Positions 24,226 to 41,120 of a stretch of DNA of 64,000 nucleotides are shown here, in pieces. Every line of letters begins with the position of its first letter. Positions within the stretch are counted from its first letter, which is position 1. The stretch spans positions 224,001 to 288,000 of the forward strand of contig RDOB01000002.1 of NCBI GenBank assembly GCA_011364965.1, read 5' to 3'. Source of the DNA: Candidatus Heimdallarchaeota archaeon. Its GTDB lineage: Archaea; Asgardarchaeota; Heimdallarchaeia; Hodarchaeales; Hodarchaeaceae. The translations under genes were made by a program, and so were the position numbers. The notes under the pieces are model-generated. The model was given only the letters and a program-made list of their open reading frames with translations. It did no database searches and was not told the origin of the DNA.

Positions 24226-24801
24226 TCACCTGTTTTTTAATTTTTTATATTCTATAATATAATCTTTGATACTACGTCCTAGTGTTTGAAATGCTTCAGT
24301 AACATTGAGACCAGATTTGGCTGAAGTATTTAAAAATTTGATCTTAAACTGAATATCACTTACCTCATTTTCTGATTTTTGTACAAATCTTTCTACTTCT
24401 GTGGAATCTATTGCATTCTCAAGGTCACTTTTATTGCCTAGAATGATATAAGGAATCTCTCTTCCAACATTAAGAAATAATTCATGTTTCCAATTTTCGA
24501 GATTGTACAATGATTCCGGCCTAGTCCTATCAAAGACTAAGATAGCCCCATGAGAACCCTTATAATAAAGTGCTCTTACTGCTGAAAACCTTTGTTGTCC
24601 TGCAAGATCCCAGATTTGGAATTTATATTGAATTCCATCTATATCTAAATTCTGTACAGCAAAATCTGCCCCTATTGTCAAAATATACCCAGATTGGAAT
24701 CCTTTCCCTAAAAATCGTTCCCTTAGACTGGTTTTTCCGACACCGCCGTCTCCTAATAAACATATTTTGTACAAAGGCACGCGAGATCCCTCTAGGTTCA
24801 A
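24226..24801 (-). CDS. Rab-like small GTPase
   Basis: G1 GDGGVGKT, G2 TIGADF, G3 WDLAGQ, G4 NKSD, G5 SAK; no C-terminal Cys. Confidence 0.95.
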   Translation of the reverse strand: MNLEGSRVPLYKICLLGDGGVGKTSLRERFLGKGFQSGYILTIGADFAVQNLDIDGIQYKFQIWDLAGQQRFSAVRALYYKGSHGAILVFDRTRPESLYNLENWKHELFLNVGREIPYIILGNKSDLENAIDSTEVERFVQKSENEVSDIQFKIKFLNTSAKSGLNVTEAFQTLGRSIKDYIIEYKKLKNR

Positions 24802-33935: not shown

Positions 33936-34178
33936 CTAGATTGACATATTTTTCATTCTTTCATACTCCTCAATCTCCATTTCAGCAAATATTGGTCCTT
34001 GGTATTCACAATTGTGACAAATATAGGTTCTTGGCGCTAATATACCTAAAAATGTATTTGGAAGAATACTCAATGAATTTTGGAGACATACTGGGCAAAC
34101 TATGACATTTGTGTTCGATTTTGAAACTCGGTGAGTTAAATTTTTAATTTCTTTCACTTTTCTAAAGAATTGACACAT
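33936..34178 (-). CDS. Small zinc-ribbon protein
   Basis: CPVC...YICHNCEYQGP. Confidence 0.7.
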   Translation of the reverse strand: MCQFFRKVKEIKNLTHRVSKSNTNVIVCPVCLQNSLSILPNTFLGILAPRTYICHNCEYQGPIFAEMEIEEYERMKNMSI

Positions 34179-34547: not shown

Positions 34548-35108
34548 ATGAGTACTATCCAATATAACTACCTAGCTAAGATTCTTCTTCTTGGGGAATA
34601 TAGAGTAGGCAAAAGTAGCATGGTACTACGATATGTCGAGGATAGATTTCCAGGCGATTATATGGCAACCATTGGTGCCAATTTTTTAGTTAAAAGCGTA
34701 AATCTCTCTTTATATGGACGACAATATAGAGTTGGACTTCAGATTTGGGATATAGGAGGGCATGCTCGTTCCTCACAAGTTGGACGTGTGTTTTTCCAAG
34801 GTGTATCAGGCGCTTTACTCGTTTACGATCTCACAAGAAAAGATACATTAGAGAAGCTTCCATTATGGATCGAACAATTGATGAAATATTCACCAGAAGC
34901 AAGGACGTATCTTGTTGGCAATAAAAGTGATCTCTTTTCTGAACGCGAAATAAGTCTAGAAGACGGGGAAAGAGCAAAAATCTCTCTAGGAATGGTTAAT
35001 TTTTTTGAAACTAGTGCAAAAACAGGGGATCATATTCAAGAAACCTTTGAAAATATGGCAAAACTGCTCATTGAGAGTAATCGGGATAAAATTCAATTAA
35101 AGGAATAA
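34548..35108 (+). CDS. Rab-like small GTPase with atypical G1/G3
   Basis: GEYRVGKS, ATIGANF, WDIGGH, NKSD and TSAK. Confidence 0.93.
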   Translation: MSTIQYNYLAKILLLGEYRVGKSSMVLRYVEDRFPGDYMATIGANFLVKSVNLSLYGRQYRVGLQIWDIGGHARSSQVGRVFFQGVSGALLVYDLTRKDTLEKLPLWIEQLMKYSPEARTYLVGNKSDLFSEREISLEDGERAKISLGMVNFFETSAKTGDHIQETFENMAKLLIESNRDKIQLKE

Positions 35109-35121
35109 AATTCTCCTTTCC

Positions 35122-35481
35122 CTAAGCCAACATCATGATCTCTTCAAATGAATGAATACCTTCTAAAGTATTTTTATAAAACTCAATTTCCTCCGATGTT
35201 ATTTCATCATTGGCGCAGAGAAATTCAATGATATCTAAAAACAAATTTTTGGCGTAATCAAAATTTGTCATCACCTCGGGGAGGGAGGAGAAGGCAAATG
35301 TTAATCTATCCGCTAATGTTGCATCTGGTACTTTCAATGCATTTCGAACAGTCTGAATATAGATCTCATCATCAGTGATTTGTTGAGCAATTTTTTTTCT
35401 TTTCTCTGCTTCTTGAGCAGCTTCATGGGTAAGTTCTGGCGGTTGAAAAATCTTCTTGAAGAAACGAATGAACCGACTCAT
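35122..35481 (-). CDS. Hypothetical helical protein with amphipathic N-terminus
   Basis: 119 aa, ATG start, MSRFIRFFKKIF. Confidence 0.7.
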   Translation of the reverse strand: MSRFIRFFKKIFQPPELTHEAAQEAEKRKKIAQQITDDEIYIQTVRNALKVPDATLADRLTFAFSSLPEVMTNFDYAKNLFLDIIEFLCANDEITSEEIEFYKNTLEGIHSFEEIMMLA

Positions 35482-35660
35482 CGAAACTATCTCACGTTAG
35501 TAATATTTATTATATTTCAGAAAATATCAATAGCAATTCGATGTTTATTCAAATGATTTAAAAAACATCTTATTCAAATTTCTAGTAGAATATAGTTTAA
35601 GTAGAGGTTTGCATTCTACAACAGGAGAATTTACGTTCTACCTGATCAGGAGGTTTATTA

Positions 35661-36716
35661 ATGTCAGATACATCTCGTACAAGTCATTCCGAAGCGATCG
35701 CTGGAGTTCGAATCAAACGATTTCTTACGTTGGCTCTATTACATATTTCTAGTGAGTTAATGAATAAATCTGATAGTAAATCTGCAAAAAAATTTCTAGA
35801 AAGTACAATTGATGATCTCGTAAAGTCAAGTTTTACATTAAGTTCTACAGATAATCCTATCAGCCAAGCCAAGCTATTTATGGCATCATTGGGTTTTTCT
35901 CCATGTGAGATAGAATGGTCGGAAGATATTCGGTTAGGACGATTTCTTCTTGGGAAAAGCCGAATTTGGAAACCAAAATCCGCAAAAGAAGAAGAATTAG
36001 TCGCATTATTGATTTTAGCTATAGTTAAAGGCTTGGGTTATGCTTTTCTACAAACCGCTGTGGAAGTCAAATTTGTGAATGATGATTTATTACCTCCCAG
36101 ATTTTCTTACGAAATCCAATTCCGTGCTGCTGAAGATGTTTTTGCTGAATCCATAAAAACAGTAGAGACTAAAGATAAAGAACAGAGGGTTACATTGTCA
36201 GCAGGAGCACTTTTAGAACCCATACTAGGTACCAGTGTGCGGGTTGAAGAAGCAACGCGATTTTTAATTGAAGCTACTCGGGAAGTTACAGAAGAAATCC
36301 AACCAGACTTATTGAACAGAAAAGATATAGCAGATTACCCCCTTAAAATACTAGAGGTTTTATTTATTCATCTCCAGGGTAGTGATAAATCAATTGACGT
36401 AGCTCAGAGGATTGGGGAACTAATGGTAGATAATTTGAAACTAGAATATCCTGATCTCAAAAATCACCAGATTTTAAAAGGCATAGGACTAATTCCAGTA
36501 GAGCAGATTGATGAGCTTCTTTTCTATGGTAATGTTGAAATTTGTGGACGAGGAAAAGAAGGGAAGAATATACAATTTTGTCAGTTTTTAGGACATCTTT
36601 GGAGTGGATTTGCTTCTAAAGTTTTAGGAAAAAAATTCATCATGGCTGAAGATCCTTTATGTGCCTCAGGGAAGGGAAAAACCTGTATATTTACACTTGA
36701 AGAGATAATAGAATAA
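35661..36716 (+). CDS. Tandem Bet3/TRAPP-like and V4R domain protein
   Basis: N-terminal domain LAIVKGLGYAFLQTAVEVKFVND...YEIQFR; C-terminal V4R Cys pattern C...FCQFLGHLWSGF...CASGKGKTCIF; strong AGGAGG RBS. Confidence 0.7.
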   Translation: MSDTSRTSHSEAIAGVRIKRFLTLALLHISSELMNKSDSKSAKKFLESTIDDLVKSSFTLSSTDNPISQAKLFMASLGFSPCEIEWSEDIRLGRFLLGKSRIWKPKSAKEEELVALLILAIVKGLGYAFLQTAVEVKFVNDDLLPPRFSYEIQFRAAEDVFAESIKTVETKDKEQRVTLSAGALLEPILGTSVRVEEATRFLIEATREVTEEIQPDLLNRKDIADYPLKILEVLFIHLQGSDKSIDVAQRIGELMVDNLKLEYPDLKNHQILKGIGLIPVEQIDELLFYGNVEICGRGKEGKNIQFCQFLGHLWSGFASKVLGKKFIMAEDPLCASGKGKTCIFTLEEIIE

Positions 36717-36734: not shown

Positions 36735-37937
36735 TTATTTATATGAACTCCATTTCTCCTCGAGTTTAGGATCCATAATTGTATCCATAATATATTTCCC
36801 AAATTCTTCTCCTGTTGCTCCAGTATCTCTTCCAGTGATTTTAATCTTCTTTTCGAATTCTGCACAAATATCCAAGGCCATTTCCAATTTTTTGGCCTTT
36901 TCAACAAAGCCTATATGATTTAGTAGTAGTGCAGCAGCTTTAATAATGCTTGATGGGTCAGCATAGATTTGACGTCCTTCATCAATCATTTTCAAGGCTG
37001 AACCATGAATAGCTTCAAACATTGCATAACGTTTACCGATATTTGCGGAGCCAGCTGTGCCCACTCCACCTTGAATTTGTGCAGCTTCATCAGTTAAGAT
37101 ATCACCATAAAGATTAGGCATAACAAGAACTTTAAAGGAACTTTGACGTTCTGGATCAATCAACTTTGCTGTCATTATATCAATGTACCAATCGTCCCAT
37201 TTAACTTCTGGATAATCTTTAGATACTCTTTCTGCCATTTCTAAGAATTTTCCATCAGTAGTTTTGACAACATTCGCCTTGGTTACAACTGTGATCTTAT
37301 TTATACTGTTCTTTTTGGCATATTCGAAAGCAGCTCTTATTATTCGTTCAGATCCTTGCATAGTAATAACTTTAAAATCAAAAGTAAGATCTTCAGTAAT
37401 TGCGATCCCCTTTGAACCTAAAACATATTCCCCCTCTGTATTCTCTCGGTAGAACATCCAATCAATTCCTTTTTCAGGAACTTTAACTGGTCTAACATTC
37501 GCGAAAAGATCTAGCTCTCTTCTCATTGCGACATTTGCGCTTTCGATATTAGGCCATGGGCTTCCTTTCCAAGGTGTTGTTGTAGGGCCTTTTAAAAGTA
37601 CATGGCATTTCTTGATTTCAGCTAAAACATCATCTGGAATAGCTTTCATCACTTCTGCACGTTTTTCAATGGTTAATCCTTTAATTTCACGGATTTCTAC
37701 TTTTCCAGAGTTAATTTCATCCTCTAAGAGAAAATTAAGGATTTTTATTGCATGTTTAGTGATCTCAGGTCCTATTCCATCTCCACCAGCTGCACCAATT
37801 ATAATCTTGTCAAGAGACTGATAATTGATCCAGTCTGGTTCAGATTTTAATAGTCGTACTCTTTCGAGTTGTTCTCGAATCAATTTTTCGAAATGTTTGG
37901 AACCTTTCTGAACTAATTCTTCAGACATTTTTATCAC
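36735..37937 (-). CDS. icd: Isocitrate dehydrogenase (isocitrate/isopropylmalate DH family)
   Basis: GDGIGPEI, KGPTTTP, RENTEG, KANV, NLYGDILTD and FEAIHGS; context next to aconitase and ACL. Confidence 0.82.
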   Translation of the reverse strand: MIKMSEELVQKGSKHFEKLIREQLERVRLLKSEPDWINYQSLDKIIIGAAGGDGIGPEITKHAIKILNFLLEDEINSGKVEIREIKGLTIEKRAEVMKAIPDDVLAEIKKCHVLLKGPTTTPWKGSPWPNIESANVAMRRELDLFANVRPVKVPEKGIDWMFYRENTEGEYVLGSKGIAITEDLTFDFKVITMQGSERIIRAAFEYAKKNSINKITVVTKANVVKTTDGKFLEMAERVSKDYPEVKWDDWYIDIMTAKLIDPERQSSFKVLVMPNLYGDILTDEAAQIQGGVGTAGSANIGKRYAMFEAIHGSALKMIDEGRQIYADPSSIIKAAALLLNHIGFVEKAKKLEMALDICAEFEKKIKITGRDTGATGEEFGKYIMDTIMDPKLEEKWSSYK

Positions 37938-37988
37938 GCTATAATTTTAATTAACTTATTTGGTTTTATTACACAAAAAAGGGGAGAA

Positions 37989-39824
37989 TTAATCTGCGAA
38001 GAGGATTTCATCCCATGGTTGTCGATATAAACCAGCGCGCTGACGTTTTTGATCAAAGATATGCCCCATCATACCTATAGATCGTCCAAGGACAAATAAT
38101 CCGTTGAGTATCTCTGCGTCAATGACATCTTGCTTTTCTTCTTCAGTTAAATCTAGATTTTCCATTAAATCAAGGAAGCATATTCCGATACATCCATCAA
38201 CATTTAATATCAAATTATTCCTTTTTTGCGTAGTTAGTTTTTCGACTTCCAGAGCAAAATCCAGATAAGGATGTTTAGGAAACCTGGTGAACACAAATTC
38301 CTTCAATAGTTTAACCCTTACATCAGGATTATTAACAGATTTTATTCTGTGACCAATCCCAGGAATATTTATTTGAATGACAGTTTTCATATGATCAATG
38401 AATTCTTGTGGATGCATTCCTTTATCTCGGGCTTCTTTGAAGTACCTTGCTGCATCGGATATTGCTCCGCCGAACCGTGGACCTATTGTAAGAATACCTG
38501 ATGTGAGTGAGGACATTAGATCCTTACCCGCTCGGGCCGTGATTATTGCATTATGGGCTCCACTAACAGCTGGTCCATGATCAGCTGTTAGCTTTACGAC
38601 CATTTCAATATAATCTTGTGCAAAATCGGGTAATTTCTTTTTGAACCAAAGTAAACCTATAACATATCCTAAAGACATATTTTTTTCAATAATGGTGTCT
38701 AATCCCACTCCTGAAAACAGTGGAACGTCACCTCGATCGTCAGAAATTGTAACAACTACATCAGTTGGTCTTCTCACTAATCCAAGTTTATTTGCCATTG
38801 TATAGTCCATCGGAAGAGATGGAGGTTCGAAATCTTCTATAGGATCAATTTTTCCCTCTACTTGGAGTTTTTCAAATGTTTCTTTTATTTTATCACCAAA
38901 ATCATCATAGGAATTTGGTACGATAACTCCAACTTCCCTAAGGGCTTTATTTTTTGCATCTGCTGTTTCTTTTTCACTTCCCGCCATAGCTCCAGCATGT
39001 CCAAATTGTAGACCTTTGGGTAAAATTTTTGCTGCAGTTCCTGTAACCCATAACACGAGAGGTTTCGTTATTTTCCTATCTTTGACAGCTTCGACAATAT
39101 TCCATTCATCAAGTCCCCCGATTTCTCCCAAACATACTAACATCTTAATTTTTGGATTCGCTTCGAATCGAAGAAGGTGTTCTAGTAGAGTAGCACCAGG
39201 ATATCTATCTCCTCCGATAGCAATTCCTTCATAAATTCCATCTGTGTTTTGAGAAACTGTAAAGTACATCTCGTTACTTAATCCACCAGATTTTGAAACA
39301 AATCCCACTGAACCTGGTCGATATAATTTTGAAAGAACAATATTTTCTATTGTTCCTGCAGTATTACCGATTTTGAATGCTCCAGCTTTTATTCCTCCAA
39401 CAGTGGCTGGTCCAATTATCATTTTATTTTTACTCTTTGCAATTCGAACTAAATCTCGACTTTGCCGTTCTGGTATACCTTCAGCAATAATTACTAATGT
39501 ACGGATGGTTTCTGATTCTAATGCTTCTTTACTAGTTGAGTAGGCTGATCGGAAAGAAGAGAAATTTATTATCACATCAGCATCAGCGTGGTTTTTCATT
39601 GCTAAATTTAATTTCTTGTAGATTGGGATAACGATTTCTTTGCTCCCCCAAAAAACCTTATGATATCCAATTGCTCCATCTTGTGTTGGTCGAATAATAG
39701 CTGCAACAGATGGTGTGTTTCGTTTAGAAACAAAATCAAAATCAAGCATACGTTGAATGGCATTTGCTTGAAGGCCATAAATAATAGCTTTTGTATTCCT
39801 ATCAAATAATTCATAGTCTTCCAT
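37989..39824 (-). CDS. aclA: ATP citrate lyase alpha subunit (CoA-binding plus citryl-CoA lyase)
   Basis: RMLDFDF, GPATVGG, QFGHAGA (phospho-His), ADHGPAVSGAHN, GIGHRIKS and LNVDG. Confidence 0.95.
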   Translation of the reverse strand: MEDYELFDRNTKAIIYGLQANAIQRMLDFDFVSKRNTPSVAAIIRPTQDGAIGYHKVFWGSKEIVIPIYKKLNLAMKNHADADVIINFSSFRSAYSTSKEALESETIRTLVIIAEGIPERQSRDLVRIAKSKNKMIIGPATVGGIKAGAFKIGNTAGTIENIVLSKLYRPGSVGFVSKSGGLSNEMYFTVSQNTDGIYEGIAIGGDRYPGATLLEHLLRFEANPKIKMLVCLGEIGGLDEWNIVEAVKDRKITKPLVLWVTGTAAKILPKGLQFGHAGAMAGSEKETADAKNKALREVGVIVPNSYDDFGDKIKETFEKLQVEGKIDPIEDFEPPSLPMDYTMANKLGLVRRPTDVVVTISDDRGDVPLFSGVGLDTIIEKNMSLGYVIGLLWFKKKLPDFAQDYIEMVVKLTADHGPAVSGAHNAIITARAGKDLMSSLTSGILTIGPRFGGAISDAARYFKEARDKGMHPQEFIDHMKTVIQINIPGIGHRIKSVNNPDVRVKLLKEFVFTRFPKHPYLDFALEVEKLTTQKRNNLILNVDGCIGICFLDLMENLDLTEEEKQDVIDAEILNGLFVLGRSIGMMGHIFDQKRQRAGLYRQPWDEILFAD

Positions 39825-39839
39825 AAAAATCTACTCCGT

Positions 39840-41120
39840 TCAAATCTCCTCTAAGGCCAGTGGAACAATTCGAGTCATGTGCGTATATCTATCAAATACT
39901 TTGATAGGAACACCTACTTCTTTACCCACTTGTTTCATTAGTTCTAATCCTTCTTTTTCATTTGGTCCACCTCGACGAACATAGATTTTCACATTCGCCT
40001 TTTTTAATTGTTCAGCAGACTTCCTGATTGCAGATACTATTCCTGTGAACGTCGCTTTGACATCAGTAAAATTAGCGATTCCTCCACCGATTATGAGAAT
40101 CTTAGGTTTCCCTTGTGGATCTGGTTTTTCAGTTATTAGATCTATTATTGTCTTTGCATACATCTCAGTATGTTCACGACTTGGATCACCACTATATTCT
40201 CCATAATTCGCTAGTTGATTTCCATATCCTAAATCGACTATTGTATCAGTATAAATAACTGATGCTCCTCCTCCCGCCACCATTGTCCAAATGCGGGCAT
40301 CTCTGTTCAATATTCGAAGTTTTAAAGAAGCACCAGTCTGTTCATCGATTGATTGAATGAATTCCTCTTCTTTCGACATTTTTTGTCCAAAAGCAGGCGG
40401 GAATTGAACAGGAGAAGCAAGGTTTCCCCAAGTATCTTGATGTAGAAAAGAGGCAGTATCATCTAGCTTTGCTTTGAGATCTAAAGGGACAATTTTTTTA
40501 TCATCTGTTATAGCAAAAGGATTTATTTCAAGAAAAGCGAAGTCTTGATCAACATAGACCTGAAATAACCCTTTAATAAATGGAATTAAGACATCAGTTA
40601 AATCTCCAAGATTGGGAAGTTTATTTGTTACATTAAATGAATTAATATCTGTACCAATTGGAATAGATACATGCGTTACTTTATCCCAGTTTTCCTCAAC
40701 GTAAATTCCACCTTGAAAACTGAAATGAATGATGTCATTATTTCTATCAGATGTGAAAGATATATAATACTCCTTGGAGTGAGGTACAAAGGGTTCTACT
40801 AAAATTCTCTCTAATATACCTTTTGTATTTCCTACTTCTAACTCTTTACCAATTTTTTCTTTCACAAAGGCTTTTAGTCCTTCGAAATTAGCATTTAGTA
40901 AAAGCAAGCCTGCTTTACCTCGTTTACCAAATAATTGATCTGGTTTTGCTGCTAATTTTTCATTTTTAAGCCACGGATTTCTATTTGCAAGATCATCAAG
41001 GTTTGTATCCGGAGTAATTACAAGTAATTTGCTATGGTACTCATACGTTGGAAAATACTTGATTAACTGAGATGCAAGCAATTTTTTTGCATCATATTCG
41101 TAAATACTTTTCTGAGCCAA
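39840..41120 (-). CDS. aclB: ATP citrate lyase beta subunit (ATP-grasp)
   Basis: KPDQLFGKRGK, IWTMVAGGGASV, NYGEYSG, GGGIANFT and RRGGPN. Confidence 0.95.
   Translation of the reverse strand: MAQKSIYEYDAKKLLASQLIKYFPTYEYHSKLLVITPDTNLDDLANRNPWLKNEKLAAKPDQLFGKRGKAGLLLLNANFEGLKAFVKEKIGKELEVGNTKGILERILVEPFVPHSKEYYISFTSDRNNDIIHFSFQGGIYVEENWDKVTHVSIPIGTDINSFNVTNKLPNLGDLTDVLIPFIKGLFQVYVDQDFAFLEINPFAITDDKKIVPLDLKAKLDDTASFLHQDTWGNLASPVQFPPAFGQKMSKEEEFIQSIDEQTGASLKLRILNRDARIWTMVAGGGASVIYTDTIVDLGYGNQLANYGEYSGDPSREHTEMYAKTIIDLITEKPDPQGKPKILIIGGGIANFTDVKATFTGIVSAIRKSAEQLKKANVKIYVRRGGPNEKEGLELMKQVGKEVGVPIKVFDRYTHMTRIVPLALEEI

Follow-up and report, generated by a model that had tools for sequence, protein, structure and literature searches.

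The subject of this work is a small gene neighbourhood at positions 34548..36716 of a 64,000-nt stretch of heimdallarchaeal DNA (the window; all features are given in its positions), and above all a protein of 351 aa encoded there, p351. Judged from its predicted structure, p351 joins in one chain two domains that belong to the Bet3/V4R/H-NOX superfold, a Cys-poor, Bet3-like N-terminal domain (N-domain) and a C-terminal domain (C-domain) of V4R type with a cluster of four Cys residues. According to the open reading frame (ORF) list, the region from 33.9 to 36.8 kb consists of four ORFs in alternating orientation: an 80-aa, four-Cys ORF resembling a zinc ribbon (33936..34178, minus strand), which is divergent from the next gene; a Rab-like small GTPase of 186 aa (34548..35108, plus strand); p119, a protein of 119 aa with a basic amphipathic N-terminus (35122..35481, minus strand); and p351 itself (35661..36716, plus strand), which on our reading of the sequence has a GGAGG 9 bp upstream of its ATG. 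The GTPase and p119 genes are convergent, with 13 bp between them, while p119 and p351 diverge across an A+T-rich intergenic region of 179 bp (35482..35660). A first-pass annotation had read the last three genes as a candidate archaeal Rab-regulator module, with p351 about 550 bp from the Rab-like gene and p119 in between; the three ORFs are indeed there, and 552 bp separate the stop of the GTPase gene from the start of p351. As described below, the fold of p351 is confirmed, and the Rab-regulator module is doubtful.

The structure of p351 was modelled with AlphaFold2 on an alignment of 38 sequences, and its domains were matched to solved structures by Foldseek and VIA-align. The model (mean predicted local distance difference test score, pLDDT, 81.8; predicted template modelling score, pTM, 0.54) has two well-modelled domains, residues 1-160 and 179-351; the linker between them (residues 161-178) has a pLDDT under 50, varies in length and is gapped in the alignment. 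On the plus strand of the window, the N-domain occupies 35661..36143 (residues 1-161), the linker, predicted to be disordered, 36144..36194 (residues 162-178), and the C-domain 36195..36713.

The best Foldseek matches of the N-domain are TRAPPC3/Bet3 structures (6aq3_E at 4.8e-4, then 1wc8, 2j3w and 1sz7), followed by V4R sensor domains and BcsD. The Z-scores of VIA-align, over 125-143 residues, are 10.4 for MopR, 10.1 for TPC6B (2cfh_C), 9.9 for both Trs33 and the MJ1460 V4R protein, and 9.3-9.4 for Bet3 (2j3w_E, 1wc8 and 1sz7). When 48,161 chains were scanned by VIA-align without any preselection, the top 12 (Z 10.0-6.9) all belonged to the Bet3/V4R/H-NOX/BcsD superfold, 11 superfold chains had Z of 8.3-10.0, and the first unrelated chain came at 6.2. 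The first-pass annotation had described this half as poor in Cys, and a single conserved Cys (C82) is found in it. It had also recognized a segment closely recalling the sequence of eukaryotic Bet3. This likeness did not hold at the sequence level: neither the protein alone nor its profiles A1 and A6 retrieved any Bet3 chain from the PDB sequences at E<=10, and PF04051 was not matched at E<=1. The segment falls at a structurally equivalent place only, with residues 15-159 of the model aligning structurally with residues 12-170 of Bet3; the identity of the N-domain is highest to Bet3 itself (15-19%, which is not significant).

The C-domain was also modelled alone, with a pLDDT of 90.3 and a pTM of 0.89. 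Its Foldseek matches are weak (E >=0.017), and all of them are H-NOX proteins, V4R proteins or TRAPP subunits. The unbiased VIA-align scan gave PoxR (6.8), DmpR (6.7), BcsD (6.3), a TRAPP subunit (6.0), H-NOX (6.0) and MJ1460 (5.9) as its matches; nearly all of the 16 chains with Z>=5 belong to the Bet3/V4R/H-NOX superfold, and unrelated chains score 4.4 or less. Each half of p351 thus matches, over most of its length, the superfold that includes both TRAPPC3 and V4R, which is a two-layer alpha/beta fold. The four-Cys V4R pattern noticed in the first-pass annotation corresponds to C295, C307, C334 and C342, of which the last three are at least 90% conserved in the 38 sequences; C295 is present in most, with its stretch deleted in 4/38, and one member of the family (P0053) lacks all four.

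Sequence profiles point in the same direction for this half. The family profile A3 matches, over its C-domain positions (about 219-337), single-domain proteins in five Asgard genomes of other classes (per-genome E 9.4e-6 to 9.2e-4). Four of the proteins so retrieved were scanned with the Pfam V4R model PF02830, which has a cut-off of 31 bits (that of PF04051 is 27 bits): three pass it (5.4e-12 to 7e-10), and one falls just below (29.7 bits, E 6.9e-7). The scores of A3 against accepted V4R proteins are modest, and two distant members of the p351 family, P0064 and P0074, reach 15.0 and 14.7 bits against PF02830 (E about 0.03). These matches support homology of the C-domain to V4R proteins. The Cys cluster probably holds zinc, by analogy with the Asgard protein Thor-TRAPPC3, in which, as in PoxR, four Cys bind zinc, and whose mouse counterpart TRAPPC3 has lost the site (Tran et al. 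2024, PMC10933270; here and below, the accessible part of that paper). By the same analogy, we infer that the N-domain of p351 is the Bet3-type half and the C-domain the zinc-type half.

The first-pass annotation had also taken the two halves to be related to each other, which is borne out for the fold but not for the sequence, since hhalign gives E 0.057 for N-domain versus C-domain, that is, no detectable profile similarity. Alignments of the two domains against 12 Bet3-like and 11 V4R proteins from Thorarchaeota gave E of 0.05-0.3; as a benchmark, the Thorarchaeota Bet3 and V4R proteins compared with each other reach only 0.0067. The idea that p351 is the counterpart of a fused Bet3-like and V4R gene pair of Thorarchaeota remains unproven on these values. 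Such pairs were seen in family f11 (loci L030-L041), where, in 11 of 12 loci, a Bet3-like gene matching PF04051 (156-160 aa) has immediately behind it, on the same strand, a gene of 181-214 aa, whose product is a PF02830 V4R protein in both of the loci scanned. The pair is flanked by helix-turn-helix (HTH) regulators, with a second PF04051 gene about 3 kb away, and its order, first Bet3-like and next V4R, is also that of the domains in p351, although profile comparison could not connect them. A second tandem V4R protein, this one visible to Pfam, is encoded in the window's own 2.97-Mb genome assembly (G000), outside the window: a frame of 534 aa (G000:C11:300914-301759; L026/L028) carries two PF02830 matches (4.9e-12 and 4.6e-8), and by profile it is unrelated to p351.

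The p351 family itself escapes the domain databases. No Pfam or NCBIfam model, PF04051 and PF02830 included, matches p351 at E<=1, and searches of the PDB sequences with the protein and its profiles A1, A6 and A2 returned only non-significant rows (the TOM1L1 VHS domain at 0.14-0.41, prolactin at 0.23 and the MJ1460 V4R protein at 0.71). Among 5.8 billion proteins, its homologs form 54 clusters, none carrying a Pfam domain, and the named ones all come from metagenome-assembled genomes labelled Heimdallarchaeota or Hodarchaeales; a profile search of 1.84 billion representatives found 27 members at E<=0.001. The genomes that we compared are sorted into coded families, with f1 the window's own and f2 its sister. 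The p351 family occurs in 23 of the 24 genomes of the order and in 78 of the 83 genomes of the class, which is Heimdallarchaeota/Hodarchaeales according to the record names, covering all seven coded families, usually with one locus per genome. In a sample of the phylum (201 genomes), it was found in all families of the class and in f9, a family outside the class, in which both genomes carry two-domain proteins of 365-368 aa; elsewhere there were weak V4R matches only. In short, the p351 family is undetected by any Pfam model, has as a rule one locus per genome, and is conserved across the class and in one family outside it.

We found no account of this tandem family, or of a link between V4R/Bet3 proteins and MglA in Heimdallarchaeia, in the literature on Asgard TRAPP, V4R and Bet3 proteins, small-GTPase regulators and MglA, a body of literature that did not include the possibly relevant supplements of Tran et al. 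2024. The accessible parts of PMC12962969, PMC10307638 and bioRxiv 10.1101/2020.10.19.343400 hold nothing specific on it. In the B3_Heim record (L059), where the p351 ortholog is PWI47526.1, a DUF6125 protein (PF19620, 1.4e-77; L059:7612-8121, minus strand) is encoded two genes downstream; going by accession order only, this protein is possibly PWI47524.1, the 'Heimdall-TRAPPC3' of which Tran et al. 2024 made a model, and it has no match in G000. Two more neighbours were seen in family f3: the gene for the translation factor aEF-1beta (PF00736, EF1_GNE) flanks the p351 ortholog in L102-L104, L108 and L109, and in several f3 loci a conserved, beta-rich ORF of 154 aa belonging to no known family follows it.

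A hint to the function of p351 comes from its gene neighbours outside f1. We examined 36 such loci, most with up to 6 kb per side and several cut by contig ends, and in 13 of them genes for an MglA-family GTPase, a Roadblock protein or both lie within about 6 kb of the p351 ortholog. In all three f6 loci, an adjoining set of Roadblock (128 aa), GTPase (198 aa) and Roadblock (111 aa) genes is divergent from p351, and in two of the three genomes a paralogous GTPase of 255 aa is encoded two genes downstream. Both f9 loci have a 255-aa MglA-like gene 300 bp upstream of p351 on the same strand. In f4, 7 of 11 loci contain the 198-aa type, the 255-aa type or an ortholog of the 111-aa Roadblock protein within 1-4 kb, and in one of the two f2 genomes (G022) a Roadblock gene (PF03259, 1e-13), orthologous to the 128-aa one of f6 (E 1.8e-24), is adjacent and divergent. 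The GTPases beside p351 in f4, f6 and f9 are of the MglA family by sequence comparison: the 198-aa type matches the Thermus and Myxococcus MglA structures at 1.2e-33, with the next family at 2.8e-10, and the 255-aa type, 42-60% identical across f4, f6, f9 and G000, matches MglA only (4/4 PDB matches). The flanking Roadblock genes match PF03259 at 2.7e-14 and 3.2e-18.

How unusual is this proximity? The five genomes checked hold only two or three MglA-like genes each, so that chance proximity within 6 kb would be expected at about 1% per genome. Both of the two MglA-like genes of G225, and two of the three of G224, are near p351. The other neighbours of p351 differ among the families and include pantothenate synthetase, a GHMP kinase, a beta-lactamase and a LOR-like protein. 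Taken together, a link of the p351 family to MglA/Roadblock GTPase signalling is plausible. An observation from G000 may be added here: at G000:C12:173692-174705, outside the window (L136), the best-scoring Rab-like GTPase gene of the genome (PF00071, 8.3e-51) is directly followed by a gene for a 250-aa MglA-like paralog, whose orthologs adjoin p351 in f4, f6 and f9.

The reading that we favour, with about an even chance of being right, is that p351 binds a ligand or zinc and serves, as a pseudo-dimer, as an adaptor for MglA/Roadblock-type switches, the Rab-like GTPase and p119 probably not being its dedicated partners. The two domains would pair within one chain, like a heterodimer of Bet3-family proteins, which the flexible 18-residue linker would permit; the C-domain would bind zinc and perhaps a hydrophobic ligand; and p351 would act with MglA and the Roadblock (MglB-like) proteins as an adaptor or as the sensor input, in a manner parallel to the Bet3-family subunits that flank the longin dimers in TRAPP.

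Several points weigh against this adaptor reading. At the level of the structure, the full-length pTM of 0.54 means that the placement of the two domains relative to each other is not confidently modelled; the N-domain Z-scores are tied, so that Bet3 is not separable from V4R or BcsD; and the C-domain scores of VIA-align are all below 8. At the level of the genes, the flanks examined contain neither a GTPase nor a Roadblock gene close to p351 in f3 (0/8), f7 (0/9), f5 (0/1) or genome G023; going by the 17 f3 and f7 loci, the protein can do without this linkage in its core role. The Roadblock-MglA-Roadblock operon of G000 lies on another contig (C13), far from p351. Loci within one family are not independent of each other, and the neighbourhood test was chosen after the data had been seen. 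Finally, the binding of a hydrophobic ligand suggested by the fold fits a sensor that is independent of any GTPase equally well.

This last thought is the core of the explanation that survives best next to ours, and which we regard as possible though on the unlikely side. It takes p351 for a stand-alone sensor or carrier that binds zinc and small molecules or lipids and has no direct GTPase function, with the GTPase and Roadblock neighbours left over from an ancestral gene order. As a rule, V4R, H-NOX and Bet3 domains take small hydrophobic ligands into their pockets, and Thor-TRAPPC3 has its zinc bound by four Cys (Tran et al. 2024), which suits the conserved Cys cluster of the C-domain. It is also in keeping with the Thorarchaeota-like genomes, in which the Bet3-like and V4R genes stand among HTH regulators rather than GTPases, and with the 17 f3 and f7 loci, in none of which such a neighbour was found. 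What a stand-alone sensor does not readily account for is the recurrence of MglA/Roadblock genes near p351 in four coded families (f2, f4, f6 and f9), with all the other neighbours different and so few MglA-like genes in each genome; such recurring proximity is not easily understood unless linkage has been selected for.

We may now turn to the proposal of the first-pass annotation, that p351, as a Bet3-V4R pseudo-dimer, and p119, as its membrane-targeting helper, form a dedicated regulator, for instance a guanine nucleotide exchange factor, of the adjacent, non-prenylated Rab-like GTPase. The description of the GTPase as an atypical Rab-like protein is a fair one. It matches the Pfam Ras model (PF00071) at 1.9e-39. 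The solved structures closest to it are those of Rab2A, Rab21, Rab1 and Rab3 (1.8e-33 to about 1e-31, with the first three at 1.4e-32 or better), together with a Thorarchaeota Rab (1.5e-30). The G1, G2, G4 and G5 motifs are canonical in the 18 aligned orthologs. The G3 motif reads WD[IL]GGH (WDIGGH in the window), in which the His aligns with the catalytic Gln of Rab2A; this His is invariant in 18/18 orthologs from f1 and 2/2 from f2. A His at the position of the catalytic Gln is also known in Sar1 and in the translation GTPases. The lack of a prenylation Cys is likewise a conserved feature, as none of the 18 aligned orthologs has a Cys in its C-terminal tail. Orthologs of this GTPase occur only in f1 (74-81% identity) and f2 (57-59%), and the best matches elsewhere are paralogs with at most 42% identity. 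The GTPase is one of 54 Ras-family matches in G000. Among those listed, 12 are on the window's contig, and a second Ras/Rab-like GTPase (PF00071, 7.5e-45) is encoded 10 kb upstream in the window itself (24226-24801, minus strand).

The amphipathic helix ascribed to p119 also stood up to examination. The hydrophobic moment of residues 1-12 is 0.91, the maximum of the protein, with a net charge of +4, and only 0.46% of 5000 shuffles reached it. The motif is kept in all 18 sequences from f1, and a looser version of it is present in two homologs from f2. Beyond this, p119 matches no family in Pfam or NCBIfam and has no usable match in the ESM Atlas, and it was found only in f1 (20/21 genomes) and f2 (2/2). 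It was also considered as a Roadblock protein, a candidacy given up on a profile-to-profile hhalign E of 0.38. Three paralogs of p119 encoded elsewhere in f1 genomes lack the amphipathic N-terminus, and neither these paralogs nor the f2 homologs have a GTPase or p351 nearby. The three paralogs (L118, L120 and L121) are directly upstream of a gene for a protein of 579-582 aa, which is a C25-family peptidase (PF01364, 1e-50) in L118, the sole locus scanned.

Several findings in f1 speak for the three genes as a module. Wherever the flank suffices, the triplet stands together (18 complete loci, and 17/17 of those with long flanks), p119 and p351 share one divergent intergenic region, the His-for-Gln change and the missing C-terminal Cys are fixed in all 18 GTPase orthologs, and the strong basic amphipathic helix is kept in the copy of p119 at this locus but lost in the three f1 paralogs. 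The same 17 loci, however, are syntenic over a block of about 7 kb that runs from moxR through genes for a DUF58-like protein, a PTP phosphatase, an M20 peptidase and the zinc ribbon to the GTPase, p119 and p351, the MoxR part being covered where the flank reaches it. Since this whole upstream block is conserved in 17/17 loci, conservation does not set the triplet apart from the unrelated genes around it. The synteny ends only downstream of p351, where isocitrate dehydrogenase is next in three loci. Because their orientations alternate, the four genes are not an operon either.

Outside f1, the arrangement falls apart. In both f2 genomes the orthologs of the GTPase, p119 and p351 are on separate contigs with other neighbours; a 311-aa protein is encoded beside the f2 p351 ortholog and another beside the f2 GTPase ortholog, and the two are unrelated to one another. 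The linkage expected across relatives thus fails beyond one family. Moreover, p351 is spread over the whole class, and its two proposed partners are confined to the order. Two f1 genomes, G001 and G009, lack orthologs of both the GTPase and p119; p351 is absent from G001 and is a C-terminal fragment of 98 residues in a different context in G009. Joint loss or an unassembled block may be the cause, and this co-absence is uninformative on function, as it is expected of one contiguous block. A predicted complex of p351, p119 and the GTPase scored 0.01 against a mark of 0.32, a value obtained with the controls not run and speaking neither for binding nor against it. The Rab-binding surface of TRAPP is formed mainly by its longin subunits, and none are encoded here.

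With the adjacency confined to f1 and to a larger block, the GTPase and p119 are probably an order-specific neighbourhood inherited within that block and not dedicated partners of p351, and a three-gene Rab regulator is, in our estimate, improbable. What remains of the first-pass idea of an archaeal GTPase regulator is its wider part: the link between a Bet3/V4R-fold protein and small-GTPase signalling has gained support, but the partners indicated are MglA-family GTPases and Roadblock proteins rather than the Rab-like protein next door. A role of p351 in catalysis or in transcription-linked regulation by means of its V4R fold, with no relation to trafficking or GTPases, is very unlikely: the accessible part of bioRxiv 10.64898/2026.10.19.760177 presents V4R as a domain for ligand binding or enzymatic activity, and many bacterial V4R domains are found in transcription activators, with PoxR, MopR and DmpR among the structural matches of p351, but Pfam and NCBIfam detect no DNA-binding or catalytic domain in p351, and no regulator gene is conserved beside it across the families.

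The remainder of the surroundings is unremarkable. The window has a G+C content of 0.31-0.37 and a uniform base composition, and the flanks carry ordinary metabolic and housekeeping genes: the MoxR ATPase, DUF58, PTP phosphatase and M20 peptidase genes of the syntenic block on one side, and isocitrate dehydrogenase and two ATP-citrate-lyase-type subunits on the other. The 80-aa four-Cys ORF has only weak zinc-ribbon matches in Pfam and NCBIfam. The isocitrate dehydrogenase gene and then the two subunit genes (Citrate_bind/ATP-grasp; CoA-ligase/citrate-synthase domains) occupy 36735-41120 on the minus strand, and at least one relative (L047) has the subunit pair as well.

How does p351 compare with the systems already described? 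Among the closest are the Asgard TRAPPC3/V4R-like proteins, whose zinc site and homodimers have already been published (Tran et al. 2024), while the relationship between V4R and Bet3 dates from Podar et al. 2008 (accessible part). Thor-TRAPPC3 (PDB 7yh2/7yh3) shares the superfold with p351 (Z 6.9-7.3 for the N-domain and 5.1 for the C-domain), has a zinc site to which the four-Cys cluster of the C-domain is comparable, and is likewise from an Asgard archaeon. It differs, however, in having one domain only (about 157 aa in all), in forming homodimers and in passing PF04051, whereas p351 has two diverged domains, the first of them without the Cys site, and passes no Pfam model. PF04051 proteins are present in 43/43 f11 genomes but in 0/9 sampled f1 genomes, and G000 has none at E<=1. 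The V4R proteins (PF02830; MJ1460, PDB 2oso; PoxR, MopR and DmpR) resemble p351 in fold (N-domain Z 9.4-10.4, C-domain Z 5.9-6.8) and in the Cys pattern of its C-terminal half, and the profile of the p351 family retrieves true members of their family. Yet p351 stays below PF02830 even at E<=1, it is a tandem protein without an output domain, and its family is confined to one archaeal class and one further family.

Eukaryotic TRAPP offers a further comparison. The Bet3-family subunits (Bet3/TRAPPC3, TPC6/Trs33 and Trs31; 2cfh, 2c0j, 2j3w and 3cue) match the N-domain with Z of 8.5-10.1 over 125-146 residues, and the two unlike Bet3-fold units of p351 recall the Bet3-TPC6 heterodimer. The Roadblock and GTPase genes beside some p351 orthologs recall, in turn, the arrangement of Bet3-family proteins, longins and Rab. 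The differences are also evident: there is no significant sequence similarity, the window encodes no longin subunits nearby, and p351 ends right after its last strand, without the long C-terminal tail. With the MglA-MglB system (PDB 3t12 and 6h17), p351 shares its recurrent neighbours, MglA-family GTPases flanked by Roadblock/LC7 proteins; the system as described has no third component of the Bet3/V4R fold, and in the window's genome the MglA/Roadblock operon is elsewhere, on C13. A bolder synthesis of the two comparisons, which we consider unlikely, would make the p351 family a single-chain, Bet3-like pseudo-heterodimer that controls an MglA-type GTPase by docking on a dimer of Roadblock (MglB-like) proteins. 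It would then be a living archaeal analogue, or an evolutionary intermediate, of the TRAPP core with its Bet3-family subunits, longin/Roadblock-fold subunits and small GTPase, and in the Hodarchaeales-like family to which the window belongs, the His-for-Gln Rab-like GTPase and the membrane-binding helper p119 may have become its new partners.

Small-GTPase genes of Asgard archaea generally lie outside operons with Roadblock, longin or TRAPPC3 genes, which makes the matching of GTPases to their regulators hard to predict from genome layout (Tran et al. 2024). Against this background the p351 family, with its presence in 78 of 83 genomes and its MglA/Roadblock neighbours in four coded families, is a concrete and testable case of a candidate GTPase regulator. 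If the proteins do not interact, p351 nevertheless represents an unannotated family that defines the class and whose fold is clearly assigned. If they do, they would be the first defined set of partners for a Bet3-fold protein in archaea, with a bearing on the origin of TRAPP-like GTPase regulators; and should the TRAPP-like reading be true, an analogue of that complex would be conserved throughout the archaeal class thought to be closest to eukaryotes.

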